From an uncultured Bacteroidota bacterium (GTDB lineage Bacteria > Bacteroidota > Bacteroidia > 2-12-FULL-35-15): DNA of 64,000 bases. The notes beneath the pieces are model-generated. The model had not been told where the DNA came from. It worked only from the letters and a program-made list of their open reading frames with translations, and made no database searches. A program made the translations under genes and the position numbers. Positions 17,554 through 37,036 of the stretch are shown piece after piece (position 1 is the first letter of the stretch; the number at the start of each line of letters is the position of its first letter). The stretch spans positions 39,537 to 103,536 of the forward strand of contig CAVSHK010000028.1 in NCBI GenBank assembly GCA_963727705.1. Reading direction: 5' to 3'.

Positions 17554-17638
17554 GGAGAAATGGCAGAGTGGTCGATTGCGGCAGTCTTGAAAACTGTTGA
17601 AGGTAACACTTCCGGGGGTTCGAATCCCTCTTTCTCCG
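17554..17638 (+). tRNA. tRNA-Ser (anticodon UGA) with a long variable arm
   Basis: Acceptor stem GGAGAAA/TTTCTCC, anticodon loop cTTGAaa, T-arm GGTTCGAATCC and a 15-nt variable arm. Confidence 0.85.
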
Positions 17639-17706
17639 CTTTCAGTCGCTGAAGCGACTTTCAGCGGACACAGTCCGCGCAAAGTTGCGAAAGCGAAATT
17701 ATTTTA

Positions 17707-17731
17707 AAGCCTGAGAAATCAGGCTTTTTTA
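17707..17731 (+). terminator. Rho-independent terminator downstream of tRNA-Ser
   Basis: AGCCTGA-GAAA-TCAGGCT followed by TTTTTT. Confidence 0.6.
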
Positions 17732-17741
17732 ATTTAAATAA

Positions 17742-17984
17742 ATGTGGACGGTTTATATTTTAAAATGTAACGACAATACTTATTATGTCGGGTGTACAGG
17801 TAATATGGAGGAACGCCTTTCAAGACATAACAAAGGGGATGTTCATTATACATCTACCCGGTTACCTTTTTTTATTGTTCATCAATCTATATTTTTTGAT
17901 AAGTATAAAGCATACGAATTTGAGAAATATTTAAAATCTGGTTCGGGAAGAGCCTTTGCTAAAAAACGCCTTCACAGTTTTTGA
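17742..17984 (+). CDS. GIY-YIG nuclease-family protein
   Basis: YILKCNDNTYYVGCTGNMEERLSRHNKG is the GIY-YIG signature. Confidence 0.75.
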   Translation: MWTVYILKCNDNTYYVGCTGNMEERLSRHNKGDVHYTSTRLPFFIVHQSIFFDKYKAYEFEKYLKSGSGRAFAKKRLHSF

Positions 17985-18309
17985 TAAACGCTGTTATTTT
18001 TTCCAAATCTTTGATAAATTGGTTCGAAACGTGAATCTTCCTACCCGCCAGTTATCTTAAAACCTCAGTAAACACTGGGGTTTTCTTTTTTTCTACCCCA
18101 TAAGGTGTCTAATCAGTATTAAAAATACCCTTAAACGATAGCTATTCATCCAATTAACCATTAGGGTAATAAAATATGAAAATCCAAGGGGATGAAGGGG
18201 TGAAGTCAAAAAAGCATAGAATCTTTTAATTTCAACAAATAATACCAAGTATTGGTAAAATTTCTAATCCATAATTCACGTTAATTATTGAAGTTGTCAA
18301 AAGTTAACA

Positions 18310-18400
18310 TTTAAGCTGTTTGTTCTCGACTACGCTCGAACTGACACAGCTTAAAAATGTCACATCGAGCGAAGTCGAGATGTAGGCGTTTTAATAGCAA
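18310..18400. repeat. REP-like palindromic element with a CTCGAACTGACA core, related to the core of the MITE
   Basis: ctcgactacgctcgaactgacacagc ... gtcacatcgagcgaagtcgag is an inverted repeat read directly. Confidence 0.4.
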
Positions 18401-18482
18401 CTTTAAACAACTTCAATATTAACCTACTATCGGGAAGTTGATACCAAGTTATTTTATTATTAAGAAATGCTTTAATGGATAA

Positions 18483-18560
18483 CGTCATTGCGAGGGCTTT
18501 TCGCCCGAAGCAATCTCAAATAACATAACGTATGAGATCGCTTCGCTCGCAATGACGAAG
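18483..18560. repeat. Long palindromic hairpin element (about 78 nt)
   Basis: cgtcattgcgagggcttttcgcccgaagcaatctc pairs with gagatcgcttcgctcgcaatgacg. Confidence 0.4.
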
Positions 18561-18705
18561 AACTATATAATCCTAAATGAATGGAAAAAAAGTATAATTG
18601 CTTATCTTAATAATTGCTTATTATACGAAACTAATTCACTCCCCTTTCTATTTAAAATTATTACTTAAAGCCCCTTTAGGAATACACTTTTATGTGACAA
18701 TCTTG

Positions 18706-21700
18706 TTATTTTAGAATAACTATTTTATCACTTTTCATTTCATTTCCATTTATTATTACCTTATAAAAATAAGTTCCATTGAGCAATGGAACATCATTAA
18801 TTTTTAATTCAGTTTCAGTATAATTTAAATGGTACACCGCTACTTCTTTACCATTCAAATCATAAATTATAAAAACACCATTATCCGAAGCAGAAATTGA
18901 AGAATATGTTAATGCCATAGTGCCGCTGTTAGGGTTGGGATATACCATAAAATCAGGTAAAGATGTTGTTGTTGCGGGCTCAATAATATTAGCTTCTTGC
19001 GATTCCGATCTATATTGACTTGGATTCGATTTACAGCCATTGGCATCGGTAACAACTACTCTATAAAAATTACCACTTAGTACTACTATCGGGTTTTGCG
19101 TAGAAGAAACTGTTGCCGGCGACTGTTGAGAATACCAACTATAAGTATAACCGGGAGTACCTCCGGAGGCTGTTGCAATTAAATATTTTAATACTTTAAT
19201 ATTAGGAAATATTATTGAGTTAGCAGTAACAGTTGGTGCAGGAAGAACTTTAACTTGTTGTGTCGCAGTAGAACTACATCCATTTAAAAAACCGGTAACC
19301 ATATATGTTCTTGTTGATGCAGGATTATCTGACAAGGTAAATCCAGCTCCAAAACCCGTCCAATTATACTGAGTTGCTGCTCCTTGAGCAGTTAAAGTAA
19401 CAAATTCTCCTGAACAAATCGCATTTTTGGACGCTGTAATAGTAATCGTAGGATTGGGTTGTAACGTTATTGTTACAGAGGCCTTAACAGCACAACCATT
19501 TTTCATACCTTTAACAGTAAATAGTTCTTTTTCAGGATTCGGATACTGACCTTCATATAATGGCGTGTAATTCGTTGTTTGTAAAGTCCCTCCTTCAAGA
19601 GGGTTTATTGGGTTTCCATTTATATACCACTGATAATTATCTAGGGTACTAGCAGCAAGAAATACCTGATCATTAGTACAATAAAAAGTGTTCCCTGTAA
19701 TACTCACAGTTTGAGTTTTTACACTAACTGTAGAAGTAGCTTTGTTACTGCATCCATTTGAATTTAAACCTGTAACAGTGTAAATGGTATTTACAGTTGG
19801 TGTAGCAATTACGGTTGCCCCGCTGGCTTTATTCAAAGAGGCAGCAGGTGACCATGAGTAATTAATTGCTCCGGTAGCTGTTAATGTTGCTGTGGTACCT
19901 GTACATATAGTTGCAGAATTAACGTTTATAACAGGCGATGGATGAACTAGTACAGTTGTAGTTGTTTTGTCAATACAACCGTTAGCATTAGTACCGATTA
20001 TGGAATAAGTAGTGCTAACAGTTGGTGAAGCAATTACAATTGCCCCGATGGCTTTATTCAAAGAGGCAGCAGGTAACCAAGTATAATTAACAGCTCCTGT
20101 TGCAGTTAATGTTGCTGTTGTGCCGGCACAAATAGTTGCAGCATTCACTTTTACAACAGGTACCGGATTAACTATTATTGATGTAGTTGTTTTGCTGATA
20201 CAACCGTTAGCATTAGTACCGGTTATGGTATAAGTAGTGCTAACAGTTGGTGAAGCAATTACCGTTGCCCCGTTGGTTTTATTCAAAGCAGCAGCAGGTG
20301 ACCACGAATAATTAAGGGCTCCCGTTGCTGTTAATGTTGCTGTTGTGCCCGCACAAATAGTTGCAGCATTCACTTTTACAACAGGTACTGGATTAACTAT
20401 TACCGATGTTGTTGTTTTGCTGAAGCAACCGTTAGTGCCAGTACCGGTTACCGTATAAGTAGTGGTAATGGTTGGTGTAGCAATTACGGTTGCCCCTGTG
20501 GTTTTATTCAAAAAGGTAGCCGGTAACCATGTATAACCGCTGGAGTTACCCATTGCTGTTAATGTTGCTGTACTTCCTGCACATATTGACTGCACTACAG
20601 GATTTGCTATAACAATTGGTTTGGGAAGAACGGTAACTTCAGCCAAAGCAATAGTACTGGTGCCACAACTATTTTTACCTGTTACCGAATAAATGCTGTT
20701 TATTGTTGGTGTGGCAACCACTGTTGCACCTGTGACAGGTGCCGTTAAGCCCGTTGTGGGGAACCAGGTATAAGTCATCGTACCATTTGTAACGGGTCCG
20801 CTTGCTGTTAAGGTAGTGGATGTTCCTTCACATATAGTTTTAGGAGTAACCGTAAGCGTGGGTGTTTTTAACACCGTAACGGTTGTTACTGCGCTTGCAG
20901 CACAACCAGCGGACGACTTACCTGTTACAGTGTATGACTTACTGGCAGCAGGACTAACGCTAATTGAAGCCGTTGTTGCACCCGTTGACCAGATATAGGA
21001 GGAGGCACCGTTTGCTGTTAATGTAGCGTTTTGTCCGTTACAAATTGTTGCTGAACTTACCGTTAATGTTGGTGAAGCAATTACCTTTATAGTATCAACC
21101 GCAATTCCAGAACAACCATTAGTGTCTGTTCCTGTAACAGTATAAGCAGTAGTTGTTGCAGGTATAAAACTAACACCGTTACTTACCCCACCTGTCCATG
21201 TGTATGAACTTGCACCACCTCCGGTAAGTGTAATTTCAGAACCTGCACATACACTATTGCTTGAAGCATTGGCGGTAACAACGGGGAGCTTATTTACTGT
21301 AACAGTTGTTGTTGAAGTGTTATTACAAGTTTCGCGAAAGGAAAAATCAGTAAAAGCAGTATATGCAGTTTCTGAATTTGGGTCACTCAACAATTTAATG
21401 TCGGCTGTTGTTGCTGAGCCCGAGTTCCATACGGTTGAAAATTGAACCCATGTTCGGACACTTGCCGATGCAACAGAAAAAGTAGCTACCGGTGTTCCCC
21501 CATTTATTGTAAGTTGATATAGGTTTGGAACTCCATCATCGTCCTCATTTACAAAAAAAGAAAAGGTATAGTTGGTGTTTGGTGTTATTGCAATTAAAGG
21601 GTTATTTTCCCATATAAGTCCACCAGCCGGTTTGTTCACCCAAAAAGCATTAGCATTGTTCGGACTAGGGTTCAACCAAGTCAAATTACCATAAGGGTAA

Positions 21701-22107
21701 AATATCATCTCGCCATATTCACTAGAGAAAGACGGGTAGTAACCACTTGTGAACCCGATAAGCTGTGAAGGACTCGTAAGCGTCGAATCACTTCCTGTGG
21801 TATTACTGTATATATATGATGAAAAATCTCCATCAACAACCAATTCTGGACCGAGAGTACCACTGCCGGAATAAGTTACGGTATAGGTAGTTGTAACAGA
21901 AGGGCTGGCTACTACTGTTGCTCCTGTAGTTGTATTTAACCCCGTTGCAGGAAACCAGGTGTAGGAGGAATCTCCACTTGCCGTTAACGTAGCGGATGAA
22001 CCGGTACAAATAGTTGCAGCATTTACTGTTACGGTGGTACACTGAGCCCTTAAACCTGCAATGTTAAAAATAAAGATCATTGACGAAAATAGAATGCTTT
22101 TCATTTT
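18706..22107 (-). CDS. Large cell-surface protein with an N-terminal jelly-roll-like domain, about 9 Ig-like repeats and a T9SS type-A C-terminal sorting domain
   Basis: Signal peptide MKSILFSSMIFIFNIAGLRAQ. Three near-identical repeats of about 95 aa (VIVNPVPVVKVNAATICAGTTATLTATGA...). The C-terminus VYPNPNSG...GKEVAVYHL...GTYFYKVII...KIVILK is the Por secretion-system CTD. Confidence 0.85.
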   Translation of the reverse strand, partial: KMKSILFSSMIFIFNIAGLRAQCTTVTVNAATICTGSSATLTASGDSSYTWFPATGLNTTTGATVVASPSVTTTYTVTYSGSGTLGPELVVDGDFSSYIYSNTTGSDSTLTSPSQLIGFTSGYYPSFSSEYGEMIFYPYGNLTWLNPSPNNANAFWVNKPAGGLIWENNPLIAITPNTNYTFSFFVNEDDDGVPNLYQLTINGGTPVATFSVASASVRTWVQFSTVWNSGSATTADIKLLSDPNSETAYTAFTDFSFRETCNNTSTTTVTVNKLPVVTANASSNSVCAGSEITLTGGGASSYTWTGGVSNGVSFIPATTTAYTVTGTDTNGCSGIAVDTIKVIASPTLTVSSATICNGQNATLTANGASSYIWSTGATTASISVSPAASKSYTVTGKSSAGCAASAVTTVTVLKTPTLTVTPKTICEGTSTTLTASGPVTNGTMTYTWFPTTGLTAPVTGATVVATPTINSIYSVTGKNSCGTSTIALAEVTVLPKPIVIANPVVQSICAGSTATLTAMGNSSGYTWLPATFLNKTTGATVIATPTITTTYTVTGTGTNGCFSKTTTSVIVNPVPVVKVNAATICAGTTATLTATGALNYSWSPAAALNKTNGATVIASPTVSTTYTITGTNANGCISKTTTSIIVNPVPVVKVNAATICAGTTATLTATGAVNYTWLPAASLNKAIGAIVIASPTVSTTYSIIGTNANGCIDKTTTTVLVHPSPVINVNSATICTGTTATLTATGAINYSWSPAASLNKASGATVIATPTVNTIYTVTGLNSNGCSNKATSTVSVKTQTVSITGNTFYCTNDQVFLAASTLDNYQWYINGNPINPLEGGTLQTTNYTPLYEGQYPNPEKELFTVKGMKNGCAVKASVTITLQPNPTITITASKNAICSGEFVTLTAQGAATQYNWTGFGAGFTLSDNPASTRTYMVTGFLNGCSSTATQQVKVLPAPTVTANSIIFPNIKVLKYLIATASGGTPGYTYSWYSQQSPATVSSTQNPIVVLSGNFYRVVVTDANGCKSNPSQYRSESQEANIIEPATTTSLPDFMVYPNPNSGTMALTYSSISASDNGVFIIYDLNGKEVAVYHLNYTETELKINDVPLLNGTYFYKVIINGNEMKSDKIVILK

Positions 22108-22599
22108 AATACTATTTAATAGTTTGCGACAAATGTATAAAAAGATCATTCTAAAATAATTTTTTGTTGATAAAATATACGTATGTCCATTTAAAGTGTT
22201 AATACAACAAATAATTTTATTCTACCTTTTAAAAAGTAATTGAAAAGGATAAATAAATCAGTCTCAATTAACATATGTTACATTCGCAATACCTATTGCA
22301 ACCATTATAACTCAATATGTATCCTCATTTCAGAAAGACTTAAAAATGATTACCAATTTGAAAAACTCCATTTCATTTTACACATTCAAATTTAGAGTAA
22401 AAGCTGAAGTAATAATTTAAAAAGCCTGGCAAAGACAATTTAAAGAAATAGGACGTTATTACATATAAAAATGAGCAATATGCTACCTGCAACTAAAAAC
22501 AAACAACTATTGAATGACCCATCTGATACTACAGCGTTTTTTGTGGTAAAAAATGCTATTCAAAATATCATTTTAAAAAAATTACAGGTAATTTTTTTA

Positions 22600-25068
22600 A
22601 TGCTATTGTTGATGATGTCATCATTTATGACCGCTCAGGTTGTTACCTTTATTCCAACGGGGGGAACGGCGGCTGATTTACAAAAAAGCTATACTATTCC
22701 TGCATGTGTAACCACTATTACCGTTGAAGTATGGGGAGGCTCGGGTGCGCGGAAATGAATGAAGGTAATGCCACCCCGGTGGTGGTGGCGGTGGTGGTGC
22801 TTATAGCAGATCCGTATTACCGGTAACAGCTGGTACTACATATAGTATTCAGCTTGGAAATCCGGGAGCTACCGGAACTCCAGGCGGTGATACTTGGTTT
22901 GCACTAGGTGCTACAAAACTTGTTTTGGCTAAAGGAGGACTAACAAGTACCGGTACTGCCGGTGGTGTCGGTGGTGCCTCTGCAGGAGGAACAGGTCAAA
23001 TAAGGTATTCAGGTGGTAATGGTGGGGCAGGAACAGGAAATGTTGGTGGCGGTGGTGGATCAACCGGAGGCTCTGGTGGAGCTGGAAAAAATGGTAGTGC
23101 AGGTAGTGGTAATGTTGGTGGAGCAGGGGGAGGTCCAGCTACCGGTAATAATGGTGGTGGTGGCGCTGCTGGTGGTAATAACAATGGTAATGGAAACGGT
23201 AACCAAACCTGTGTAGCGTGTGGTGGTGGTGGTGGTGGTGGTATAGGTTCTACTACCGGTGGAACAGGTTCAGTTGGTATGGCTCAAATTACCTTACCCG
23301 CACTGTTAAATGTAACAGTAGGTGTTTCTCAAACTATATGTCCCGGATTACCCCAACCATTTATGGCAACTGGTTCAGGGGGAAATACCTCTAGCTATAA
23401 TTATAAATGGCAATATAACAATACCGATACAACGAATGCTGCTGCATGGACGGATTTAACAAGCTTTTTAGCTCCTAACACTTATACTCCAACTACTTCA
23501 ATTTCAACCACAACCTGGTACAGGGCAATTATTACCGAAACAACAGGTTGTGTCTCATTACGATACTTCGGCAGCGGTGCAGGTATATGTACAGCAACTT
23601 ACTGCCGATTTAGAATTTTCACAAACCATATGCAATGGCAGTACGCCCACCCCACTTAACATTACCACACAACCTGCATCGGCAGTGCCGAATTTTGTCT
23701 GGTACACATCCGCCAATTTATCATCCGGTTATACGCCCGTTACAGGAACTGTAACTGTAAATACATATGCTCCCGGTTCATTAACAGGAACAGCATATTA
23801 TATGGCTGTGGTAAGTGCTCCCGGTTGTGTAACATTAAATACCAATACCATTACTTTAACAACCACAAATGCTTTGCCTGTTTGTAATGTAGGTCGAAAT
23901 CCCGCCTCCATGTACAATACCAATGCCTTACCCATGTTTAAGGCATCGGTAGGTGGTTCGGTAACTACCGGAGCCTGGAGCATCGTTTCGGGTGGTGGTT
24001 CCTTAAGTACCACTGCACAAACTAATAATCCTGCTGGAGTTACTTACTCTGCAGCCCCCGGTTATACAGGCACTGTAGTTTTACAACTAACAACTAATCC
24101 TAACGGTTGTCCCACACAATGTATTTCCACCAAAACTATTACAGTATTAAATAATACTATACAAACTGTAGTTTTTTCATCAGCTACAACAACGGTTACA
24201 CCATGGACTGTACCTGGATGTGTACATACAATCACGGTGGAAACATGGGGTGCCGGTGGTGGTGGTGGTACAGGTGGATTCGGTGCAATTCCGGATGGTT
24301 CGGGCGGCGGTGGCGGTGCTTATAGTGGTAATATTTTATCCTGTCACACAAAATACCATTTATAGTTTATTTGTAGGGGCAGGTGGCAAGGGTGCTGCGC
24401 ACACGCCGAGATGGCGAATTAAAGTGTGGAAGGCGGAAGGAGGCAATTCATGGTTTGGTAGTCCAACTACTGTATTATGCTCAAGGTGGAACGGAGGACT
24501 TGCTTCTGGTTTGCCAAGGGATATGGAAGTTAAATTCCAGGGGGCAGTAAGTTCGGCAGGATAAGGAAATTTACCAATAATTTCGGGAGGAGTGGGTCAG
24601 GAGCCAAACAGGTTATTTATGGCCGGAGCGGTGGTGGTGGTGCATCTGCCTGTCCGAACAGGAAGTGGAGGGTCTGCTCCAAACCCAAATACTGCAGTTA
24701 GCGGAGGATGCGGGTAAAGTTCAAATACCACAACTCCTGGTGGGACGGCCTGTACGGGAGGAGGGAATGGTGGAGTAGGCGGACTCAATCACTGTTTTGG
24801 GTGTAATTAATTAGCTGCACCTGGTCGAGGTCCTGGAGGAGGAGGTGGTGGTGGAACTAATGCAGATGATCATCCTGGCGCTGATGGCGCTAATGGTCAA
24901 GTTATTATATCATACACCACGCAAAATCCTGTACTATTATATCTTTCAGTTGCACCATCTGCAACTATTTGTAAGGGAGGTAGTGTTACCTTAAGTGGAG
25001 ATTCTGATTACCCGGTAATTTATTCATGGAATGACGGAGCAACGACCTATACAACCAGTGTTATTTCA
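22600..25068 (+). pseudogene. 5' portion of the giant adhesin gene. It holds two PF12810-like Gly-rich domains broken by at least six frameshifts or stops.
   Basis: Signal peptide MLLLMMSSFMTAQ. The motifs CVTTITVEVWGGSG...GGGGGGAYS (22700-22800) and CVHTITVETWGAGGGGGTGG...GGGGGAYSG (24220-24340) are each followed by a frame change. The frames run 1, 2, 3, 1, ..., 1. Breaks fall in GGTGGTGG-type tracts. Confidence 0.6.
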
Positions 25069-28000
25069 GTGGCGCCTACTGCTACGACTACCTACACGCT
25101 TTCAGACCTTAGCGGATGTGCACCTCCAATAACACAAACCATTGTGGTTAATCCACCATTAAGTATTACCATAAACCCAACCACGGTATGTGCAGGGATT
25201 ACAGGTACCATAAGTGCAGTAGTAACGGCATCCTTGTCTCCGAGCTATACCTGGACAGGAGTTGTGGGTGGAGCAACCACCACATTGAGTACTACTTCAG
25301 CAATGACAGCCAGTCCAACTGTAACAACAACCTATACGGTAAATATCAACACTTCATCCTGTGCAGCTACGGTTACCAATACGATAACGGTAAAGCCCAA
25401 CGCCGGGCTAGCGTTAAGTTCCGGGGCAGGCACGAATGGTCAAACGGTGTGTGTAAATACAGCGATAAGTCCCATTACCTATACGATAAGTGGCGGTGCC
25501 ACAACAGCCACGGTCACGGGCTTACCGGCAGGAGTAACGGGTAGTTTTTCCGGAGTAATGTTAAGCATTGGTGGTACTCCGAGCACGGTATCTACCCAAA
25601 CCCTCACGAGTACTTATACGGTAACTACAGCAGGGACTTGTTCTCAGACAGCGGTAACCGGAACGATCACCGTACAACCCAAAGCATTCTTAGGTCTGTC
25701 ATCGGCAATTGGAACTGATAATAAAACCTATTGTGTCAATAACGCACTAACAGCCATCACCTATACGATAAGTGGTGGAGCAGCAACAGCCACGGTTACA
25801 GGTTTACCTTCAGGGGTAACGGCTTCTGTTTCATCCAATACAGTAACAATTTCAGGCACACCTACGGCGGTATCGACTCAAACAGTGGCCAGTACCTATA
25901 CAGTAACCACATCGGGTAGCTGCGTTCAAACCTCCACTACGGGTACGATCACCGTCACACCAAAGGCCTTTTTAGGTTTGTCCTCGGCAGTGGGCAGTGA
26001 CAATCAAACCCTGTGTGTGAATACAGCCTTAGCCACACCGATTACCTATACGATAGCGGGCGGCGCCACCACGGCCACGGTAACGGGCTTGCCGGCCGGT
26101 ATAACGGGTAGTTTTACCGGCACAACGTTAACCATCAGTGGCACTCCAAGCACGGTATCTACTCAAACAGTGGCCAGTACCTATACAGTAACAACGTCGG
26201 GTACCTGTTCTCAGACGGCAGTAACGGGAACAATCACCGTCACTCCAAAAGCCTTTTTAGGTTTATCCTCTGCCGTGGGCAGTGATAATCAAACCTTGTG
26301 TGTGAATACAGGAGTATTAACACCAATTACCTATACAATAACAGGCGGCGCCACCACGGCCACGGTAACGGGCTTACCGGCGGGTATAACGGGTAGTTTT
26401 ACCGGAACAACGTTAAGCATCAGTGGCACTCCAACTGCGGTATCCACTCAAACAGTGGTCAGTACCTATACGGTAAGCACAGCGGGTACAATTTGCGCTC
26501 AGACATCTGTCACAGGAACAATCACGGTAACTCCTCAAGCCTTTCTGGGTTTAGCATCGGCAGTGGGCAGTGATAATCAAACGCTGTGTGTGAATACGGC
26601 CTTAGCAACACCGATCACCTATACGATAAGTGGAGGAGCAACCACGGCAACAGTCACGGGCTTACCGGCGGGTATAACGGGTAGTTTTGCCGGAACAACG
26701 TTAACGATCAATGGCACCCCGACAGCGGTGTCCACTCAAACGGTAGTGAGTACCTATACGGTAAGCACATCGGGTACCACCTGTTCTCAAACAGCGGTAA
26801 CGGGAACAATCACGGTTTTCCCCAAAGCCTTTTTAGGTGTGGTAGGAGCAGCTAGTCAGACCTTGTGTATTAACACTCCGTTAACGAATATCACCTATAC
26901 GGTAAGCGGCGGAGCAACAGGAGGGAGTGTAACAGGTTTACCGGCAGGACTAACAAGTATGTATTCCTCAGGCACAGTGACAATAAGCGGCAGCCCGACA
27001 GTGGTAGGAACATTTGGTTATACCGTAAACACAACAGGCACTTGTGCCCAAACAAGTGCAACAGGCACGATAGTGGGCAATCCGAACACGGTAGTAGATT
27101 TAACTTCCGGAGCAGGTAGCGACGCTCAAAAATTGTGTCAGACAGATGTATTAAGCACGATCACCTATAGTTTAAGTGACGGAGCAACAAGTGCGAATGT
27201 AACGGGCTTGCCAACGGGTGTAACCGGAGTTTATAGCAATAGTGTAGTGACGATAAGTGGCACCCCAACAGTATTGGGCACCTATAATTATACGTTAACC
27301 ACAGTAGGAGGCTGTGCTCCGGTAACGGTTTTAGGAAGCATTACGATCAATTCAAATGCAGCGATCGCCTTATCCTCCGGCAATGGCAGTGATAATCAAA
27401 CCTTGTGTGTGAATACCGCTTTAGTCACCCCCATAACTTATACAATAAGCGGTGGTGCGACCACGGCCACGGTCACGGGCTTACCGGCGGGTATAAGCGG
27501 TAGTTTTTCCGGCGTAACATTAACCATCAGTGGCACTCCAAGCACGGTATCGACTCAAACCTTAACCAGTACCTATACGGTAACAACAGCAGGTAACTGT
27601 ACCCAAACAGCAGTAACGGGTACAATCACCGTAACACCCAATGCTTTTTTAGGTTTATCCTCAGCAAACGGCAGTGATAATCAAACGCTCTGTGTGAATA
27701 CAGCTCTGGCAACACCCATCACCTATACGATAACAGGCGGAGCGACTACCGCCACAGTAACGGGTTTGCCAGCAGGTATAACGGGTAGTTTTACCGGAAC
27801 AATGCTAACCATTAGTGGCACTCCAACTGCTATATCTACTCAAACAGTGGCAAGTACCTATACGGTAACAACAGCAGGTACCTGTTCACAGACATCAGTA
27901 ACGGGTACAATCACGGTAACACCAAAAGCCTTTATAGCTTTATCCTCGGCAAACGGCAGTGATAACCAAACCTTGTGTGTGAATACAGGGACATTAAGCC

Positions 28001-31000
28001 TCATCACCTATACGATCACCGGTGGCGCGACTACAGCAACGGTAACGGGCTTACCGGCAGGTATCACGGGTAGCTTCTCCGGAACAACGTTAACCATTGG
28101 TGGCACTCCGACAGCGGTATCGACTCAAACCTTAACCAGTACCTATACGGTAACAACAGCGGGTACCTGTTCACAGACATCAGTAACGGGTACCATTACT
28201 GTAACCCCAAAAGCCTTTATAGCTTTATCATCGGCAGTGGGCAGTGATAATCAAACGTTATGTGTGAATACAGGAACATTAAGCCTCATCACCTATACGA
28301 TCACCGGTGGCGCGACTACAGCAACGGTAACAGGCTTACCGGCGGGTATAAGCGGTAGTTTTACCGGAACAACGTTAACCCTTAGTGGCACTCCAACTGC
28401 TATATCCACTCAAACAGTGGCAAGTACCTATACGGTAACCACAGCAGGTACCTGCGCTCAAACATCAGTAACAGGAACGATTACCGTAATTCCTCAAGCA
28501 TTTTTAGGTTTATCCTCCGCAAACGGCAGTGATAGTCAAACGCTGTGCGTGAATACGGGGACATTAAGCCCCATCACCTATACGATCACCGGTGGCGCGA
28601 CTACGGCCACGGTAACGGGCTTACCGGCAGGTATAACCGGCAGTTTTTCCGGAACAACGTTAACCATTGGTGGCACTCCAACCACGGTATCCACTCAAAC
28701 AGTGGCGAGTACCTATACGGTAACCACAGCGGGTACCTGTTCACAGACAGCAGTAACGGGTACCATTACTGTAACCCCAAAAGCCTTTATAGCTTTATCA
28801 TCGGCAAACGGTAGTGATAATCAAACGCTGTGCGTGAATACAGGTACATTAAGCCCCATCACCTATACGATCACCGGTGGCGCGACTACAGCAACGGTAA
28901 CAGGCTTACCGGCGGGTATAAGCGGTAGTTTTACCGGAACAACGTTAACCCTTAGTGGCACTCCAACTGCTATATCCACTCAAACAGTGGCAAGTACCTA
29001 TACGGTAACCACAGCAGGTACCTGCGCTCAAACATCAGTAACAGGAACGATTACCGTAATTCCTCAAGCCTTTTTAGGTTTAGCATCGGCCATGGGCAGT
29101 GATAATCAAACACTGTGTGTGAATACAGGTACATTAAGCCCCATCACCTATACGATCACCGGTGGCGCGACTACAGCCACGGTAACGGGCTTACCGGCGG
29201 GTATCACGGGTACATTCTCAGGAACAACGTTAACCATCAGCGGCACTCCAACCACGGTATCCACTCAAACAGTGGCAAGTACCTATACGGTAACAACAGC
29301 GGGTACCTGTTCACAGACATCAGTAACGGGAACGATCACGGTAACCCCAAAAGCCTTTATAGCTTTATCATCGGCAAACGGTAGTGATAATCAAACGTTA
29401 TGTGTGAATACAGGAACATTAAGCCCCATCACCTATACGATAACAGGAGGCGCGACTACAGCAACGGTAACAGGCTTACCGGCGGGTATAAGCGGTAGTT
29501 TTACCGGAACAACGTTAACCCTTAGTGGCACTCCAACTGCTATATCCACTCAAACAGTGGCAAGTACCTATACGGTAACCACAGCGGGTACAACTTGCGC
29601 TCAAACCTCTGTTACAGGAACGATCACCGTAATTCCTCAGGCCTTTTTAGGTTTATTCTCGGCAGTGGGCAGTGATCATCAAACCCTGTGCGTGAATACA
29701 GCGTCATTAACCCCCATCACCTATACGATCACCGGTGGAGCAACCACGGCAACAGTAACGGGCTTACCAGCGGGTATAACAGGCAATTTTTCAGGAACAG
29801 CGTTAACCATTAGCGGTATTCCAACCACAGTATCGACTCAAACGCTTACAAGTACCTATACGGTAACAACAGCAGGTACCTGTACTCAAACATCTCTTAT
29901 CGGTACCATTACGGTTTATCCGGATGCTACCATCGCTTTAATGTCGGTCGGAGCCACAGCAACTCAAACCGTATGTGTACGAGGCACTCCTATAACACCA
30001 ATAACGTATACCTTAAACGGCGGAGCTTATAATGCATCTGTAACAGGGCTACCGAACGGTGTAAATGGTTCATATAATAATGCCGGAGTATTCACTATTT
30101 CGGGTACGCCTAGCGGTGTAACCAGCCAAACGGTTGCTGTTGTGAGTACCTATACGGTACGTACAACAGGTTCTGCTTGTGTTCAAAAACAACTGACAGG
30201 AACCATTCAGCTGGATCCATTACCAACTGCATATGCAGGCTCAACAAGCCCAATCTGTCAGACAGACTCGGTTAGCGTAACAGGTGCAAGTTCAGGTAAC
30301 GGAGCAATCAACTGGACAGACAATGGCCAAGGTGTGTTAAGCAACCAGACGACATTAAGTCCTCAATACAAAGCAAGCACACTTGATCAGGGTAAAACCA
30401 TCACCTTGACCATGACGGTAACCAGTACCAACAGTTGCAATGTCTTGCCTGAAACAATACCATCAAGCGTTAATGTGGTAGTACGCCCAACCTTAACGGC
30501 GGTGCCAACAGTTACTGCCAGTGTATGTCAGAATCAGCCCGCAACAGCAACCTTTAATGTAACCAGTCAGGGTACTTCACCTTATGTATTTACCTATACT
30601 GAAACGGTAAACGGAACTCAAAGTACTAAAACAGTTACGACTCCTACTGTTAATGGCAGCACTACGGCAACCATAAGTGCTCCTACCGGCATCACCGGAA
30701 CGGTTGTTTACAATCTGACACAGGTAAAAGATGCAAACTGTACGCAACCATTACCTGTAAATACACAAACGATGATTGTAAACAAATTACCAACGGCCAC
30801 CATCAGTCAAAACGAAGAGATATGTCGTGATAGTACAGCTAAAGCTATTTTATTCAAAGGAATGAACAGTACCAAACCATATACCTTTACTTTTACCGTT
30901 AACAATAGTTCTGCGATACAAAAAGGAGATAGTGTTTATTCACTAAAACCGGCTACGGATAAAGTAGGCACATTTGTTTATATACTGACCAATGTGGTAG

Positions 31001-31587
31001 ACTCGAATCAATGTAGTACGGCAATACAAAATCAAAAAGCGACCGTGGTGGTTCATGAAAATCCACATGCAATTTTTAGTGTAACTCCTGAAAGCACCAG
31101 TATCTTGAGACCAACGATCAGTATTAGCGATGCTTCTATATCAACAACATCCTGGTTGTGGGACTTTGGCGATAAGAACCTATCCCCATCGCCCAACCCT
31201 GAGGAACATACCTATGCCGATACAGGAACGTATAGAATAAAATTGCATGTAAGCAATGGATCGTGTAAAGATTCAACCTCTGAAATCGTTCGGATAACCT
31301 TACCGACAACGTTATATGTTCCGAATACTTTTAGCCCCAATGGCGATGGTGTGAACGATGTATTTAAAGCCGAAGGTGATGGTGTTACAAAGTTTGAGAT
31401 GATGGTGTATGACCGTTGGGGACAAATGGTGTTTTACAGTACGGATATCAACAAAGGCTGGGACGGTAAAATAAACGGAGGCAGTGAGGTGTCCATGATA
31501 GATACATATGTTTATGTGATTAACGTAACTGCATTCACCAACAAACATGATTATACCTACAGGGGTACTGTTAATTTAATGAAGTAG
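25069..31587 (+). CDS. Intact 3' 6.5 kb of the giant adhesin. It has about 20 tandem 95-aa Thr/Gly-rich repeats, a PKD domain and a T9SS type-B (gliding-motility) C-terminal domain.
   Basis: The unit AFLGLSSAVGSDNQTLCVNT...ITYTITGGATTATVTGLPAGITGSF.GTTLTISGTPT.VSTQTVASTYTVTTAGTC.QT.VTGTITVTPK is repeated. The PKD signature is WDFGD...HTYADTGTYRIKLHVSNGSC. The C-terminal domain reads YVPNTFSPNGDGVNDVF...YDRWGQMVF...GWDG. Upstream at 24830-25068 the frame is open, so the M at 25069 is internal. Confidence 0.85.
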   Translation: MAPTATTTYTLSDLSGCAPPITQTIVVNPPLSITINPTTVCAGITGTISAVVTASLSPSYTWTGVVGGATTTLSTTSAMTASPTVTTTYTVNINTSSCAATVTNTITVKPNAGLALSSGAGTNGQTVCVNTAISPITYTISGGATTATVTGLPAGVTGSFSGVMLSIGGTPSTVSTQTLTSTYTVTTAGTCSQTAVTGTITVQPKAFLGLSSAIGTDNKTYCVNNALTAITYTISGGAATATVTGLPSGVTASVSSNTVTISGTPTAVSTQTVASTYTVTTSGSCVQTSTTGTITVTPKAFLGLSSAVGSDNQTLCVNTALATPITYTIAGGATTATVTGLPAGITGSFTGTTLTISGTPSTVSTQTVASTYTVTTSGTCSQTAVTGTITVTPKAFLGLSSAVGSDNQTLCVNTGVLTPITYTITGGATTATVTGLPAGITGSFTGTTLSISGTPTAVSTQTVVSTYTVSTAGTICAQTSVTGTITVTPQAFLGLASAVGSDNQTLCVNTALATPITYTISGGATTATVTGLPAGITGSFAGTTLTINGTPTAVSTQTVVSTYTVSTSGTTCSQTAVTGTITVFPKAFLGVVGAASQTLCINTPLTNITYTVSGGATGGSVTGLPAGLTSMYSSGTVTISGSPTVVGTFGYTVNTTGTCAQTSATGTIVGNPNTVVDLTSGAGSDAQKLCQTDVLSTITYSLSDGATSANVTGLPTGVTGVYSNSVVTISGTPTVLGTYNYTLTTVGGCAPVTVLGSITINSNAAIALSSGNGSDNQTLCVNTALVTPITYTISGGATTATVTGLPAGISGSFSGVTLTISGTPSTVSTQTLTSTYTVTTAGNCTQTAVTGTITVTPNAFLGLSSANGSDNQTLCVNTALATPITYTITGGATTATVTGLPAGITGSFTGTMLTISGTPTAISTQTVASTYTVTTAGTCSQTSVTGTITVTPKAFIALSSANGSDNQTLCVNTGTLSLITYTITGGATTATVTGLPAGITGSFSGTTLTIGGTPTAVSTQTLTSTYTVTTAGTCSQTSVTGTITVTPKAFIALSSAVGSDNQTLCVNTGTLSLITYTITGGATTATVTGLPAGISGSFTGTTLTLSGTPTAISTQTVASTYTVTTAGTCAQTSVTGTITVIPQAFLGLSSANGSDSQTLCVNTGTLSPITYTITGGATTATVTGLPAGITGSFSGTTLTIGGTPTTVSTQTVASTYTVTTAGTCSQTAVTGTITVTPKAFIALSSANGSDNQTLCVNTGTLSPITYTITGGATTATVTGLPAGISGSFTGTTLTLSGTPTAISTQTVASTYTVTTAGTCAQTSVTGTITVIPQAFLGLASAMGSDNQTLCVNTGTLSPITYTITGGATTATVTGLPAGITGTFSGTTLTISGTPTTVSTQTVASTYTVTTAGTCSQTSVTGTITVTPKAFIALSSANGSDNQTLCVNTGTLSPITYTITGGATTATVTGLPAGISGSFTGTTLTLSGTPTAISTQTVASTYTVTTAGTTCAQTSVTGTITVIPQAFLGLFSAVGSDHQTLCVNTASLTPITYTITGGATTATVTGLPAGITGNFSGTALTISGIPTTVSTQTLTSTYTVTTAGTCTQTSLIGTITVYPDATIALMSVGATATQTVCVRGTPITPITYTLNGGAYNASVTGLPNGVNGSYNNAGVFTISGTPSGVTSQTVAVVSTYTVRTTGSACVQKQLTGTIQLDPLPTAYAGSTSPICQTDSVSVTGASSGNGAINWTDNGQGVLSNQTTLSPQYKASTLDQGKTITLTMTVTSTNSCNVLPETIPSSVNVVVRPTLTAVPTVTASVCQNQPATATFNVTSQGTSPYVFTYTETVNGTQSTKTVTTPTVNGSTTATISAPTGITGTVVYNLTQVKDANCTQPLPVNTQTMIVNKLPTATISQNEEICRDSTAKAILFKGMNSTKPYTFTFTVNNSSAIQKGDSVYSLKPATDKVGTFVYILTNVVDSNQCSTAIQNQKATVVVHENPHAIFSVTPESTSILRPTISISDASISTTSWLWDFGDKNLSPSPNPEEHTYADTGTYRIKLHVSNGSCKDSTSEIVRITLPTTLYVPNTFSPNGDGVNDVFKAEGDGVTKFEMMVYDRWGQMVFYSTDINKGWDGKINGGSEVSMIDTYVYVINVTAFTNKHDYTYRGTVNLMK
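25680..29940 (+). repeat. Near-identical tandem coding repeats with period about 285 bp. Between about 27900 and 29640 they form higher-order 570-bp dimers at over 95% nucleotide identity.
   Basis: Direct comparison, for example 28141-28680 against 28681-29220, shows almost base-identical sequence. The alternate-frame ORFs 28545-28814 and 29115-29384 are near-duplicates. Confidence 0.85.
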
Positions 31588-31880
31588 AGAAAGATTTCAG
31601 AGTAAGTTTCTGGTTTGAACCTCAAATGAAATCTTGCAGATGTTCGATCATTTACTAATTACTCCTACCAATAGAAAAAAGGGGTTTAGACTGTAATAGT
31701 TTAAGCCCTTTTTATTTGTACACACACTACCTTCCAACCATGTTAAGCATAATTTCGTTTGGATGAAAAAAGTTTTTTTGTATTTAACAAAATAATATAT
31801 TAAATTCGCAAGCTATGGTAGTTGTTATGAACGAAAGATGCCCTACCAAAGGGCTTTCAAATAATTAAAATTAAATTTAA

Positions 31881-32261
31881 ATGAAAACATCAGCATTGAG
31901 AACTTCTACGATTATTTGCACTTTCTTTTTAGTAATTGCGGCTTTTTCTTCCTCTTCCTGCAAAAAGGATGAAACTTGTTATGGTCAGGTAAATGTATAT
32001 GATTCAACAGGTGCTGTATTGCCTAATACTTTGGTGCATTTATTTCATCCGGGAGATACATCAAAAACATATACCTCCAATCCCGGAAATGTGGTTTATC
32101 AAGGTACAACGGATGGAAATGGGAATGTAAAATTCACTATTAAGTTACCTGCTGTTTATACAGTAAGAGCCGACCATCCAAAGATAGTTGGTAAATACAA
32201 ATTAGGCGTATTAATCTTAAATAATCCGGGATCTAAGGATACGTGTAATATTCATTTCTAA
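31881..32261 (+). CDS. Small lipoprotein (carboxypeptidase-regulatory-like beta-sandwich?)
   Basis: Lipobox FSSSSC and GTTDGNGNVKF. Confidence 0.45.
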   Translation: MKTSALRTSTIICTFFLVIAAFSSSSCKKDETCYGQVNVYDSTGAVLPNTLVHLFHPGDTSKTYTSNPGNVVYQGTTDGNGNVKFTIKLPAVYTVRADHPKIVGKYKLGVLILNNPGSKDTCNIHF

Positions 32262-32269
32262 TCTTCTTA

Positions 32270-35200
32270 TTATAAAATCAGGCTTAACTTATTTTTCGCC
32301 TCATCAATAGATTTTATATTCTCGAACGATAAGGACAATTTTCCGTTGCTTTCTTTCATTTTACATATTTTGCTATTGTTTTGTACAAACGTTAGCACCT
32401 TTGTAAATACTTCACTTTGGTAGTAAGGCGATTGTTGGTTTTGTATAAAATAGCCTACTATTCGGTTGTTTTTCAAAACCAGTTTTTCAAAACCAATTTC
32501 CATAGATAACCAGCGTAAACGTACAGTATGAATGAGTTGTTTTACTTGTGTGGGAACCTCACCGAAACGATCGTGCAAGTTGTTTTCAAAGGTCAGCAAT
32601 TCATTTTCATCTTTTGCATCGTCCAGCTCTCTGTACAAATTCAACCGCTCAGCAATGTTGTTTACATAAGTGTCGGGAATTAAAATTTCCATATCCGTAT
32701 CAATCACACAGTCGTTAACATATGTTGTATGTATTTTACCAGTATATTTATGAGAACCACCGACGTCTGTTGTTCTAAGCTCTTCATGTTCCATGCGCAA
32801 TTCTAAAATGGCTTCGTCAAGAATTTTTTGGTACATGTCAAAACCAATTTCGTTGATAAAACCACTTTGTTCACCACCCAATAAATTTCCGGCACCGCGT
32901 ATGTCGAGGTCGCGCATGGCAATGTTAAAGCCACTTCCAAGATCAGAGAATTCTTCAATGGCTTTTAACCGTTTGCGTGCTTCATTTGTAAGTACCGATA
33001 GGGGAGGAGTGAGCAAATAACAAAATGCTTTTTTGTTGGAACGACCAACACGTCCGCGCATCTGATGCAAATCGCTCAACCCAAACATTTGTGCCTGATT
33101 GATGATGATTGTATTTGCATTTGAAATATCTAACCCCGATTCAATAATGGTAGTTGCCACCAACACATCATATTCTCCTTCAACAAAGCCGAGCATCATT
33201 TCTTCCAGTTTGTCTCCGTCAAGCTGTCCATGACCTATAGCAACTTTTACATCCGGACAAAGCCGTTGTATCATTCCTGCAACTTCAGTAATGTTTTGCA
33301 CCCTGTTGTGTACAAAAAACACTTGTCCGCCCCGCGAAATTTCAAACATAATGGCATCACGAATAATTTCTTCATTAAACGTGTGTAGCTCTGTTTGCAC
33401 AGGATAGCGGTTAGGCGGCGGTGTGCTGATAACCGATAAATCGCGGGCGCCCATCATTGAAAACTGAAGTGTGCGTGGTATGGGTGTTGCGGTAAGTGTA
33501 AGTGTGTCAATGCTTGTTTTGAATGGTTTTTAACTTGTCTTTAATACCAACTCCAAACTTTTGTTCTTCGTCAATAATCATCAAGCCTAAGTCTTTAAAT
33601 TTTACATTTTTGCTCACAATACCGATGTGTGCCAATTAAAATATCCACTTCGCCTTTGGCTACTTTTTCAAGTGTTATTTTTTGATCTTTGACCGATTTA
33701 AAACGATTGATATAATCCACATTACAAGGCAGTTCTTTTAAACGCTCTTTAAACGTTTTGTAATGCTGCAATGCAAGAATTGTTGTGGGAACGAGTACTG
33801 CAACTTGTTTGCTGTCACACACTGCTTTAAATGCAGCGCGTATGGCTATTTCTGTTTTCCCAAAACCTACATCCCCGCAAATGAGCCTGTCCATAGGGTA
33901 TTCCTTCTCCATATCCCGTTTTACATCGGCAGTAGCCTTTACCTGATCGGGAGTATCTTCATAAATAAATGAAGCTTCCAATTCGTTTTGTAAATAGTTG
34001 TCGGGACTGAATCGGAAGCCTTTTAGCGCTTTTCGCTTGGCATAAAGCTGAATTAAATCAAAGGCAATTTCTTTAACTTTTTTCTTCGTTTTTTGTTTAA
34101 GGACACTCCAATTGGTACTACCGAGTTTGTTTACTTTAGGTGCTTCGCCTTCTTTTCCGGAGTATTTGGCAATACGGTGTAATGAATGAATACTGATATT
34201 CACTACATCCATATCTTTATAAACAAGACGAATAGTCTCCTGAATTTTCCCATTTATTTCAATGGTTTCCAGCCCACCGTAGCGACCAATGCCGTAATCA
34301 ATATGTGTAATATAATCGCCGGGATTAAGACCCTTTAACTCTTTTAAAGTAATGGCTTCGTTCTTTTTGTTGAAGCTGCTTTTTAAACGGAAACGGTGAT
34401 AGCGATCAAAAATCTGATGGTCGGTGTAACAGGCTAATTTTAAGTCGTTATCAACAAAACCTTCGTGAATAGATAATGATATAGAATTAAATTGTACTGC
34501 TTCAGTATTGAAGTTGATGTCCTCAAATATTTTATTCAATCGCTCTACCTGTTTGGATGTATCCGAAAAAATAATGTTGGTTAAATGTGCACGAACATTG
34601 CTTTTTAAGTTGTCGTTGAGATAACTGAAGTTTTTATTAAAACTTGGTTGAGGCGAAAAATTATAATGGATAACTTTTGTATGCGTGAGCGAAGCATTGT
34701 TGCTAAATTCAATTAAAGGAAAAGTCAATACTTGTTTTGTAAAACTCTCCTTATCTATATACAGCTCCTGTGGAGGCAAATGCGTTATTGTTGTATCTAA
34801 TTTGTTGAAAGAACTTTGAGCAAGTGCAAATGCTTTTTCAATTTTATCAATGGTAAACTGAAAATGTTTGAACCACACCACCGTGTTTTCAGGAATAAAT
34901 TCAAAAAATGTTTGCCGGCTTTCTTGCAACAGCTTTGTTTGCACATTAGGAATGATGATACATTCCGGCAGCTTTTTAATAGAAAGTTGCGTAACACTAT
35001 CAAAACTGCGTATAGAATCAACATCATTACCTAAAAATTCAATACGATAGGGATTGTCGTTTGAAAAAGAAAACACATCAATAATGCCACCTCTTACCGA
35101 AAACTGTCCGGGTTCGGTAACATAATCAACACGGTCAAAACCGTATTCAAACAACACATCGGTAATAAAATCAATGGAAATTTTTTCCGCTTGTTTTAAT

Positions 35201-35631
35201 TTTAAGGTGTTTTTGCTGAGATGACTTTTTGTAACAACCTTTTCAGTGAGCGCTTCGGGATAAGAAATCACTAACACATGCTTGTTGCCGGCATTAATTT
35301 TATTCAACACTTCGGCACGTAATAAAATATTGGAGTTGTCTATATCCTCGTGTTGATAAGGCATACGGTAGGAAGCGGGGAAAAATAATACCTTATCTTC
35401 GCCCAATAAATTTTCAAGATCATTAAAAAAATAAGCAGCTTCTTCTTTATCGGCAAGAATTAATAACTGTGTTTTGTAAATGTGCTGATATGCTGCTGCT
35501 GCAATGAATGAAGCTCCGGAACCCACAATGCCACGCAAATGCATGCGCACACGATCTCCTTTCAATTCTTGTGTTAGGGCAGAATTGTTAGGCGACTCGC
35601 CATATTTGCGTAAAATATCTTCTTTAGTCAC
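32270..35631 (-). CDS. mfd: Transcription-repair coupling factor Mfd, interrupted by two single-base indels between about 33460 and 33600
   Basis: N-terminal ORF 33595-35631 (UvrB-homology and RNAP-interaction domains, DVGFGKTE). C-terminal ORF 32270-33457 (helicase motifs and TRCF domain). The intervening reverse-strand sequence encodes [34 protein letters not shown] and ...[25 protein letters not shown] in shifted frames. Confidence 0.9.
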
Positions 35632-35684
35632 TTATCTTGGTGCGCAAAAGTACAAAAGACTATTTGAAAATGAGGAAATTTTTT

Positions 35685-35767
35685 CTCTGTGTTCACTCCG
35701 TGAATCTATGTCTAATTTTTTGTTTCACTGAGGCTCACAGAGATTTTTAAACAGAGGTTCACAGAGA
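35685..35767. promoter_or_regulatory. Three copies of a GTTCACAGAGA-like motif (two direct, one inverted) in the mfd/purK divergent intergenic region
   Basis: tctctgtgttcac at 35685-35697, ggctcacagaga at 35732-35743 and ggttcacagaga at 35756-35767. Confidence 0.3.
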
Positions 35768-35881
35768 AAGAAAAAACGGTTTTGAGATTAATAATTAAAA
35801 CCGAATTGTATTCTCCTCTTTTTAGGAAAAACAATACCTTCGTTCATTCATTTTAACAAACAAAATATAGTAAAGTTCAAT

Positions 35882-37036
35882 ATGAACTCAACATACTTTT
35901 ACAATAAAAAATTAGGAATATTAGGGGGTGGACAACTTGGCAAAATGCTTTGTACAGCAGCAGCTCCATGGCATTTGCAAACTCACACGCTTGAACCAAG
36001 CGATGATTGCCCAGCTTCGATAGTTTGCAAAAATATTACAAAAGGAGATTTTACTGATTTTGATACGGTGTATCAGTTCGGCAAACAAATGGATGTTATT
36101 ACCATTGAAATTGAAAAGGTAAATGTAGATGCATTAATAAAGTTGCAAGAAGAAGGAAAAAAGATTTATCCATCGCCGCAAGCTCTGCAAATAATACAAG
36201 ATAAAGGTTTGCAGAAACAATTCTATAAAAAAAACAATTTAAAAACATCCGCTTTTGAATTGTATGATGATAAACAACACGTTATAGACGCTTTAAACAA
36301 AGGCATTATCAGCTACCCTTTTGTTCAGAAGTCGCGTAAAGACGGGTATGATGGAAAAGGTGTTGCGGTGATTAATACAGCTAACGATTTACATTTATTA
36401 CTTGAAGGAGCTTGTGTTATTGAAGAAAAAATAATTTTTACAAAAGAACTTTCGGTAATAGCAGCGCGTGATGCAAAGGGTAATGTAAAATGTTTTGATG
36501 TGGTTGAAATGGTGTTTGATGAACAAGCCAATTTGGTTACGTTGCTGTTATGTCCTGCCAATGTTTCAACTGAAGTGGCTCAAAAAGCCGAAGCACTTGC
36601 TGTTAAAACCATTACCGCATTTGGTATTGTGGGGATATTAGCTGTAGAATTATTCTTGGATAAAAACAACGAAATTTATATTAACGAAGTAGCACCACGA
36701 CCGCACAACAGCGGGCATCATACCATTGAAGCTTGTGTGACTTCTCAATACGAACAACATTTGCGAGCTATACTGGAATTGCCATTAGGAAGTACTGAAA
36801 TCATCATGCCTTCGGTAATGATTAATTTACTTGGGGAAAAAGGATATAACGGTGATGTTATTTATCAAGGACTTGAAAAGTGCATGGAGGTGGAAGGGGC
36901 TAAATTTCACATTTATGGCAAAGCGAAAACAAAGCCTTTCCGAAAAATGGGACATGTAACGATAATTGACAAAAACCCTGAAAGCGCTGTTAAGAAAGCG
37001 GAATACATACAAAAAGAGTTGAAGGTTGTAGCATAA
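35882..37036 (+). CDS. purK: N5-carboxyaminoimidazole ribonucleotide synthase
   Basis: LGILGGGQLGKM, ATP-grasp motifs, and SGHHTIEAC. Confidence 0.9.
   Translation: MNSTYFYNKKLGILGGGQLGKMLCTAAAPWHLQTHTLEPSDDCPASIVCKNITKGDFTDFDTVYQFGKQMDVITIEIEKVNVDALIKLQEEGKKIYPSPQALQIIQDKGLQKQFYKKNNLKTSAFELYDDKQHVIDALNKGIISYPFVQKSRKDGYDGKGVAVINTANDLHLLLEGACVIEEKIIFTKELSVIAARDAKGNVKCFDVVEMVFDEQANLVTLLLCPANVSTEVAQKAEALAVKTITAFGIVGILAVELFLDKNNEIYINEVAPRPHNSGHHTIEACVTSQYEQHLRAILELPLGSTEIIMPSVMINLLGEKGYNGDVIYQGLEKCMEVEGAKFHIYGKAKTKPFRKMGHVTIIDKNPESAVKKAEYIQKELKVVA

Follow-up and report, generated by a model that had tools for sequence, protein, structure and literature searches.

Comparison with described systems

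The SprB-type adhesins of Flavobacterium johnsoniae and the CHU_C proteins of Cytophaga hutchinsonii are multi-thousand-residue proteins that combine a Sec signal and arrays of immunoglobulin (Ig)-like domains with a C-terminal domain (CTD) of the TIGR04131/PF13585 family, the type-B sorting domain of type IX secretion systems (T9SS). A gene of the same plan, with a putative Sec signal, lies on the + strand of the DNA analysed here, a stretch of 64,000 nt (hereafter the window) from an uncultured Bacteroidota bacterium (assembly GCA_963727705.1, contig CAVSHK010000028.1, positions 39,537 to 103,536). The putative adhesin differs from SprB and the CHU_C proteins by two N-terminal glycine-rich domains of the Gly_rich_2 family, and nothing points to a gliding function. 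By analogy with these systems, it might be anchored at the surface through a PorP/SprF-like partner (PMC9143113). The glycine-rich domains themselves match the PF21722 proteins of Bacteroidota above the family cut-off, whereas their likeness to phage fibre proteins (7ypx_A, 9d93_Qa) and to the ALK/LTK domain (PF12810) is found at the level of the predicted fold, with no sequence match.

The 5′ part of the gene is interrupted by frame breaks, for which two described phenomena offer comparison. Gene-fragmenting indels are a documented weakness of metagenome-assembled genomes (MAGs) built from long reads (PMC9262707; proovframe preprint 10.1101/2021.08.23.457338). The window resembles such assemblies in that single-base indels split conserved genes, the sequence is near-perfect elsewhere, and an independent assembly restores a gene; it differs in that most sites lie outside homopolymers and in tight clusters (two within 100 nt in mfd, at least nine within 2 kb in the adhesin gene). 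With simple-sequence contingency loci, which vary at poly-G or tetranucleotide tracts, the gene has in common that it encodes a surface adhesin and is G-rich at the 5′ end of its coding sequence, but it has no long tract with a repeat unit other than a multiple of three nucleotides, and its breaks are many and lie outside repeats. We consider it likely, by analogy with a control gene of the same window, that the frameshifts are consensus indel errors of the assembly, the adhesin itself most likely being intact in the cell.

Gene outline and reading frame

Judged from its sequence, the gene is a real one; its giant product resembles T9SS type-B adhesins and combines glycine-rich domains with Ig-type repeats and a PKD domain. 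A single gene-sized frame of 9.1 kb (22471-31587) extends from an ATG at 22471, with a second ATG at 22480, to the stop codon at 31585-31587. The initial annotation, made from the letters and their open reading frames (ORFs), had already recognised an adhesin gene with glycine-rich domains, tandem repeats, a PKD domain and a type-B CTD, and this identification is upheld. The PKD domain scored 39.4 bits against PF18911, and the type-B CTD scored 43.7 bits against TIGR04131 (cut-off 35) and 60.2 bits against PF13585 (cut-off 27); the latter domain lies at the extreme C-terminus, as in other T9SS type-B cargo. One frame could indeed be traced from the putative signal peptide to 31587 across the frame breaks. 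The end point given earlier was correct, whereas the start given at 22600 falls within the hydrophobic region of the signal peptide, the ATG lying about 130 nt upstream.

The first ORF fragment terminates at 22756-22758 in a stop created by the frameshift, and its N-terminus can be aligned with that of an intact homologue on the metagenome contig L082. The signal-like hydrophobic segment (~22587-22640), which ends in LMLLLMMSSFMTAQ, is conserved in L082; between this segment and the CTD, at least nine frame breaks intervene in the present assembly. The signal-peptide core is preceded in both genes by an extension of ~35 aa (window 22471-22590, L082 ~1176-1290), which follows the pattern KNKxLLxxPSDTxxFFVxKNAxQN and is conserved above the average of the protein.

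Number, position and context of the frame breaks

A stop-codon map showed that at least nine frame switches are required to pass from 22471 into the long ORF, and at least nine breaks lie in the 2.06 kb of 22750-24810. The earlier statement that six or more breaks all fall within the first 2.4 kb is thus upheld. The breaks were mapped by frameshift-aware dynamic-programming alignment of two homologous proteins to the DNA, which led to ~12 sites inferred by homology, with positions good to about ±10 nt and an approximate count in 24480-24810. Breaks 1 and 2 (within 22728..22778) each correspond to the lack of one base. The segments between breaks 2 and 3 (777 nt) and between breaks 3 and 4 (789 nt) are stop-free in their own frames. 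In the dense patch further downstream, the conserved A-x-G-G motif can be read only in a third frame, over five codons (24475-24489), and where neighbouring indels are no more than 7-15 nt from each other, conserved motifs persist in alternate frames between them.

The breaks had been placed inside GGTGGTGG tracts, which the mapping contradicts: none of the ~12 mapped sites lies inside such a tract, and two lie within 10 nt of one. The longest GGT tracts (22778-22798, 23222-23242 and 24255-24269) are read through in frame, and the stretch 23242-23991, which contains break 3, has no GGT tract at all. Homopolymers, suggested earlier as sites of sequencing error, fare no better; the longest in the region is a G6 at 22659, away from any break, and no long homopolymer coincides with a break.

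A family profile was built from 17 homologues and used to score the glycine-rich domains. The frame-corrected domain 1 reached 136 bits, compared with 117 and 141 bits for intact homologue domains, and domain 2 reached ~100 bits after imperfect correction, compared with 51 and 39 bits for its best raw frames. Because domain 1 scores 136 bits, domain 2 rises from 51 to ~100 bits, and the 777-nt and 789-nt segments are stop-free, the indel-only damage bears the mark of consensus noise over intact coding information and not that of a decaying pseudogene.

Control genes and an independent assembly

Pfam scans of the neighbouring ORFs revealed five further frameshifted genes in the window, housekeeping or metabolic ones, namely mfd (transcription-repair coupling factor), a DEAD-box helicase, an acyl-CoA dehydrogenase (ACAD), an AMP-binding enzyme (acyl-CoA synthetase) and a DUF3108 gene, which means that ~6 of the ~55 window genes, about one in ten, are broken. 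mfd is split into ORFs of 678 aa and 395 aa, and its breaks were placed by means of the 87%-identical Mfd of contig L002, in a stretch conserved at 90%. Between its two insertions lie 33 codons, the DEEQ helicase motif among them, whose own frame shows perfect conservation. In the ACAD/AMP-binding region (52510-54300), where the AMP-binding enzyme is split, about four breaks occur within 1.8 kb.

Exact-protein look-ups located the same strain among the Logan contigs of run ERR11594402, which were assembled independently. Four Logan contigs represent 28.8 kb of the window (8924-17640, 31647-32878, 33951-48093 and 58795-63494), over which the two assemblies differ by 4 single-nucleotide polymorphisms and 2 indels. 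One of the indels splits the helicase: contig L086 is without the extra C at 10633, encodes a normal helicase gene of 442 aa, and shows no other difference from the window in 8,717 nt. The frameshifts in five other genes and the missing helicase indel both favour the sequencing or assembly error that had been offered earlier as one option. The second indel is located at 60633 (G7 in the window, G5 in Logan). This tract, poly-C on the + strand and poly-G on the - strand, measures 7 nt in the window (60633-60639) and 5 nt in the Logan contig L083, and lies ~11 nt inside the 5′ end of a minus-strand ORF (59818-60774), for which the window gives a length of 318 aa and the gene call in L083 one of 276 aa; the tract is either a homopolymer error or a tract of genuinely variable length.

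The other frameshift clusters (mfd, DUF3108, ACAD/AMP-binding and the adhesin) are outside the Logan coverage that was retrieved. Logan contigs end 0.2-0.6 kb from several of these clusters, which would fit locally poor read support or a mixture of strains. Around the adhesin gene, they stop exactly at the 3′ end of a tRNA-Ser gene (17554-17639) and resume 60 nt past the adhesin stop codon. No Logan gene call was found for the 14-kb segment in between (17640-31647), which holds two T9SS cargo genes and may be a strain-variable surface-protein segment. A genomic island at the tRNA-Ser gene was also considered and rejected, as no att-like direct repeat was found between 17500-17760 and 31500-31950.

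If the breaks are errors, the 9 to 12 or more in 22750-24810 would be single-base indels in the consensus of a long MAG contig, clustered in stretches of poor consensus quality, to which a shortage of accurate reads or a mixture of strains may have contributed. The source contig is probably a long-read one, because it measures 340 kb (340,435 bp), compared with 1-14 kb for the Logan contigs. We also count in favour of error the intact homologue L082, the other broken genes of the window, the purifying selection on the 6.5-kb ORF (ratio of nonsynonymous to synonymous divergence, dN/dS, 0.17), and the frameshifts of a second homologue, L001, likewise from a long-contig-style record, which lie inside Gly_rich_2 domains between clean flanks. 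The coordinates of the adhesin features and of the control sites are compiled in Table 1.

Table 1. Features of the adhesin gene and frameshift sites of other window genes (positions in the window).
Feature	Position	Strand	Description
First ORF fragment, 95 aa	22471..22758	+	N-terminal extension, signal-peptide region and first strands of Gly_rich_2 domain 1
Gly_rich_2 domain 1	22642..23300	+	PF21722; readable only with two -1 frame corrections
Break 1, -1	~22750-22757	+	non-repetitive, near ...CGGAAATGA...
Break 2, -1	~22769-22778	+	C4 run at 22774-22777, GGT tract just downstream
Ig-like modules	23301..24200	+	cysteine-bracketed, linking the two glycine-rich domains; collinear with L082 and L001/P0001
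Break 3, +1 nt	~23552 (23545..23562)	+	non-repetitive GTGTCTCATTACGAT
Gly_rich_2 domain 2	24204..24915	+	heavily garbled; family profile
Break 4, +1 nt	~24342 (24338..24345)	+	follows conserved GGGGGAYS motif
Dense patch	24480..24810	+	~8 more indel-type breaks and three residual in-frame stops (24531, 24715, 24808)
Unbroken ORF, 2172 aa	25069..31587	+	C-terminal 72% of the gene; frame open from 24811
17 tandem Ig-type repeats, 90-97 aa	25399..30216	+	He_PIG, PF05345 ('putative Ig domain'), 86.8 bits summed
PKD domain	31120..31296	+	PF18911 (PKD_4), 39.4 bits; aa 2018-2076 of the 2172-aa ORF
T9SS type-B C-terminal sorting domain	31318..31569	+	TIGR04131 / PF13585 CHU_C; aa 2084-2167 of 2172
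DEAD-box helicase, split	10622-10633		extra C at 10633
mfd, two +1-nt frameshifts 100 nt apart	~33523, ~33623	-	alignment to L002 Mfd
DUF3108 gene, split	~48350		
Acyl-CoA dehydrogenase, split twice	~52510, ~53100		

Gly_rich_2 domains and homologues

Two PF12810-like domains had been proposed for the N-terminal part. The PF12810 (ALK/LTK type) profile gave no match at E<=0.01, the frame-corrected sequence included, and the sequence matches PF21722 (Gly_rich_2) instead, its resemblance to PF12810 being at the fold level only. The frame-corrected N-terminus scored 36.7 bits against PF21722 in two stretches, which is above the Pfam gathering score (24.3) and places it in the family, whereas the uncorrected N-terminal fragments gave almost no Pfam signal. 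More than 40 relatives were found in databases, all with PF21722, and dozens of intact Gly_rich_2 proteins of 400-1000 aa exist. The AlphaFold model of one family member, P0011, has a mean predicted local distance difference test (pLDDT) score of 75, with values above 90 over most of the β-core. This model matched a fibre of cyanophage Pam3 (7ypx_A, E 1.7e-7) and also the Bxb1 tail tip (9d93_Qa), whereas its matches to the TNF-like/glycine-rich (TG) domains of ALK/LTK were weak (E 3e-3 to 2e-2). No chain was matched in a sequence search of the PDB with Gly_rich_2, and a literature search on PF21722 returned no paper, so that its function is undescribed there. Because the predicted fold is like that of phage tail-fibre and ALK/LTK domains, the Gly_rich_2 pair is probably the binding end of the adhesin.

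The closest relative retrieved, at 50% identity, is L082, a JGI metagenome contig of 3.1 kb. Its frame begins at a homologous N-terminus (MLSTIKNKELLKKPSDTAKFFVIKNAVQN...) and stays open across the signal peptide, domain 1, the middle modules and the first part of domain 2 until the contig ends. A second homologue of the same architecture, with 39% identity, is found on the ENA contig 'ctg64583_2x_l' (L001). It has two frameshifts of its own, both within the Gly_rich_2 domains and at positions unlike those of the window, and no break affects ~6 kb of coding sequence on its flanks. In this contig, domain 2 leads on into Ig modules; one of the frameshifts (~7240) falls a little way into the C-terminal portion of that domain, and the junction between domain 2 and the Ig modules is in one open frame. 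Directly upstream of this homologue (4933-8117), a second large gene (3-4373) is present, the C-terminal 456 aa of which are 32% identical to the C-terminal region of the window adhesin; adhesin-like genes therefore stand in tandem there.

When the middle region was scanned against 185,579 species genomes, no relative and no close orthologue was found, and a scan of JGI metagenomes gave L082 only. With the unique middle and 5′ portions as queries, protein searches retrieved only fragments of the source contig itself (P0048, P0050 and P0056). Exact-protein look-ups of the 1147-aa neighbour, the C-terminal Mfd fragment, the 95-aa first fragment, ORFs of 400 aa and 395 aa and P0048 yielded no second assembly of the adhesin or its neighbours. 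Around mfd, 80 related loci (the closest with 82-87% identity) were compared, and the adhesin stood beside mfd in none of them.

The repeat array

Tandem Repeats Finder reported a 285-bp tandem array at 25471-29894 with 15.6 copies and 75% matches. When the protein was cut at its conserved ITYT motif, 17 repeat units were delimited, of which 14 are alike and three (units 6, 7 and 17) are divergent. The tandem array of 285-bp repeats described earlier is therefore present, although not as about 20 near-identical copies. The nucleotide identity of more than 95% ascribed to the repeats was also too high: pairwise values are mostly 55-90%, with 55-61% for units 6, 7 and 17 and 63-90% for most other pairs, and values of 94-97% are confined to units 11, 13 and 15. 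The organisation in 570-bp dimers holds for units 10-15 (27928-29640), where the units alternate in an A/B pattern and form three dimers, and does not extend to the rest of the array.

Synonymous divergence (dS) and dN/dS were estimated by the Nei-Gojobori method for ten repeat units of equal length. dS was 0.3-1.0 among the units and as low as 0.07 for the pair 11/13 only, and the median dN/dS was 0.17. Given these values, the majority of the copies must be of long standing, their protein sequence kept by purifying selection, and a single dimer has been duplicated recently. The recent expansion that had been proposed is supported for units 11, 13 and 15 but not for the remaining units. As stated earlier, the 6.5-kb repeat block is unbroken, lying within the 2172-aa ORF.

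Alternative explanations

The alternatives fall into those that take the indels as real and one that divides the gene. In the latter, ORF 25069-31587 would function as a gene by itself, while the fragments upstream of it would be what is left of a different one, which agrees with its intact 2172 aa, its purifying selection and its own CTD. Yet this ORF has no signal peptide of its own, the frame, open from 24811, comes out of the C-terminus of domain 2, where GADGANGQVIISY corresponds to the end of the Pfam profile (192-225/226), and L001 passes from domain 2 into the Ig modules across a junction in one open frame; we find such a division hardly credible. Equally implausible is phase variation, in which slipped-strand mispairing in G-rich tracts would switch the adhesin on and off, as had been suggested for this gene. 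A surface adhesin is a typical kind of phase-variable gene, GGT/GGC tracts are plentiful in the region, and the two assemblies differ in tract length (G7/G5) at 60633. A contingency gene, however, has a long homopolymer or a repeat with a unit other than a multiple of three at its break, and one reversible change of length restores its ORF. Here the tracts are GGN trinucleotides that are read in frame, GGT repeats slip in 3-nt steps that keep the frame, and the longest homopolymer (G6) is not at a break; breaks 1, 3 and 4 and most of the breaks in domain 2 lie in non-repetitive sequence, and with at least nine switches needed, the frame could not be restored by a change in any single tract. 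An invertible promoter was likewise rejected, since 22050-22650 contains no convincing inverted repeats of that type, and a scan for promoters and terminators in the 5′ region did no better than chance.

A true pseudogene, that is, an adhesin inactivated in this lineage, with real indels accumulated in its 5′ part, is unlikely, but it is better placed than the preceding alternatives. It would account for at least nine disruptions relative to intact homologues; the remaining broken genes of the window are all non-essential, L001 too is broken within its Gly-rich domains, and the lack of a Logan gene call at the locus would allow the population to vary here. Neutral decay, however, should extend across the 9.1 kb, whereas the 6.5-kb ORF has no breaks against at least nine in 2.06 kb. 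Nor is there substitutional decay, as the frame-corrected domain 1 scores like those of intact homologues, and the relaxed constraint that marks a pseudogene, with substitutions and stops along the gene, is not seen in an ORF that is intact with a dN/dS of 0.17. Natural decay would also hardly produce indel pairs with a spacing of 7-15 nt between which motifs survive in another frame, and the one frameshift of the window open to comparison, that of the helicase, is missing from an independent assembly with 100% identity in all other respects. In a variant of this explanation, G-rich glycine-coding DNA may be an indel hotspot in vivo. That the indels are real and that Gly_rich_2-coding DNA is such a hotspot, seen independently in the window contig and in L001, seems to us quite improbable. 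The case for assembly error in the adhesin gene is built on one directly compared control site, the helicase, and on the indel-only pattern, and several points weigh against it. Independent sequence was sought for the 5′ region of the adhesin gene itself and not retrieved, so that the origin of its breaks in error would follow by analogy with the helicase, where a true polymorphism is conceivable as the source of the difference. The density of at least nine breaks in 2.06 kb greatly exceeds that found in the comparison with the Logan contigs (~1 per 14 kb), and with most sites outside homopolymers, the classic homopolymer-error model explains them incompletely. Moreover, every gene seen broken is dispensable, and real gene decay would also fit. 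With these points taken into account, we still regard assembly error as the likely explanation.

Genomic neighbourhood

The adhesin gene is flanked by genes for a T9SS type-A CTD protein and a 126-aa protein, and by mfd. The first of these (18706-22149, - strand) is divergently oriented and encodes 1147 aa with a type-A CTD (PF18962) and Ig_7 (CHU_C-associated) domains; it shares with the adhesin gene a 320-bp AT-rich (27% GC) intergenic region. The type-A CTD of this neighbour implies a host with a T9SS, the core genes of which are outside the window. A cognate PorP/SprF-like gene beside type-B cargo is frequent but not universal, and none was found adjacent to the adhesin in the Pfam scans of neighbouring ORFs, which covered part of the ORFs of the window.

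Elsewhere in the window, at 6354-7920 (- strand), an enzyme of the MbnB/TglH/ChrH family (PF05114, E 1e-101), which modifies ribosomally synthesised and post-translationally modified peptides, is encoded beside a DUF2063/NGO1945-type protein, a pairing typical of a small peptide-modification cluster. Between the gene for ribosomal protein L27 and serS, L083 carries a small ORF of the ParE-toxin family (1121-1417; window ~62078-62374) with a 74-aa ORF upstream, which probably form a toxin-antitoxin pair.

Implications

The roles of the protein in secretion and adhesion are read here from knowledge of its family. The putative Sec signal peptide would bring the adhesin to the periplasm, and the type-B CTD would pass it to the T9SS and thereby to the cell surface, where the 17 Ig-type repeats could serve as a stalk presenting the two N-terminal glycine-rich domains.

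The feature that drew attention to this gene, its frame breaks, is most likely an artefact. With about one gene in ten here split by single-base indels, apparent pseudogenes and phase-variable loci in this contig need to be checked against reads before they are interpreted. Were the indels real, populations would carry adhesin alleles from which the phage-fibre-like binding domains are lost while the stalk and the secretion signal remain under selection, so that a receptor-binding module of the cell surface would be lost or would vary at the level of the population, with pressure from phages or grazers as one conceivable driver. If the breaks are instead errors of assembly, as we think likely, the gene would be one more giant T9SS type-B surface protein, the mildly notable feature of which is its pair of Gly_rich_2 domains.

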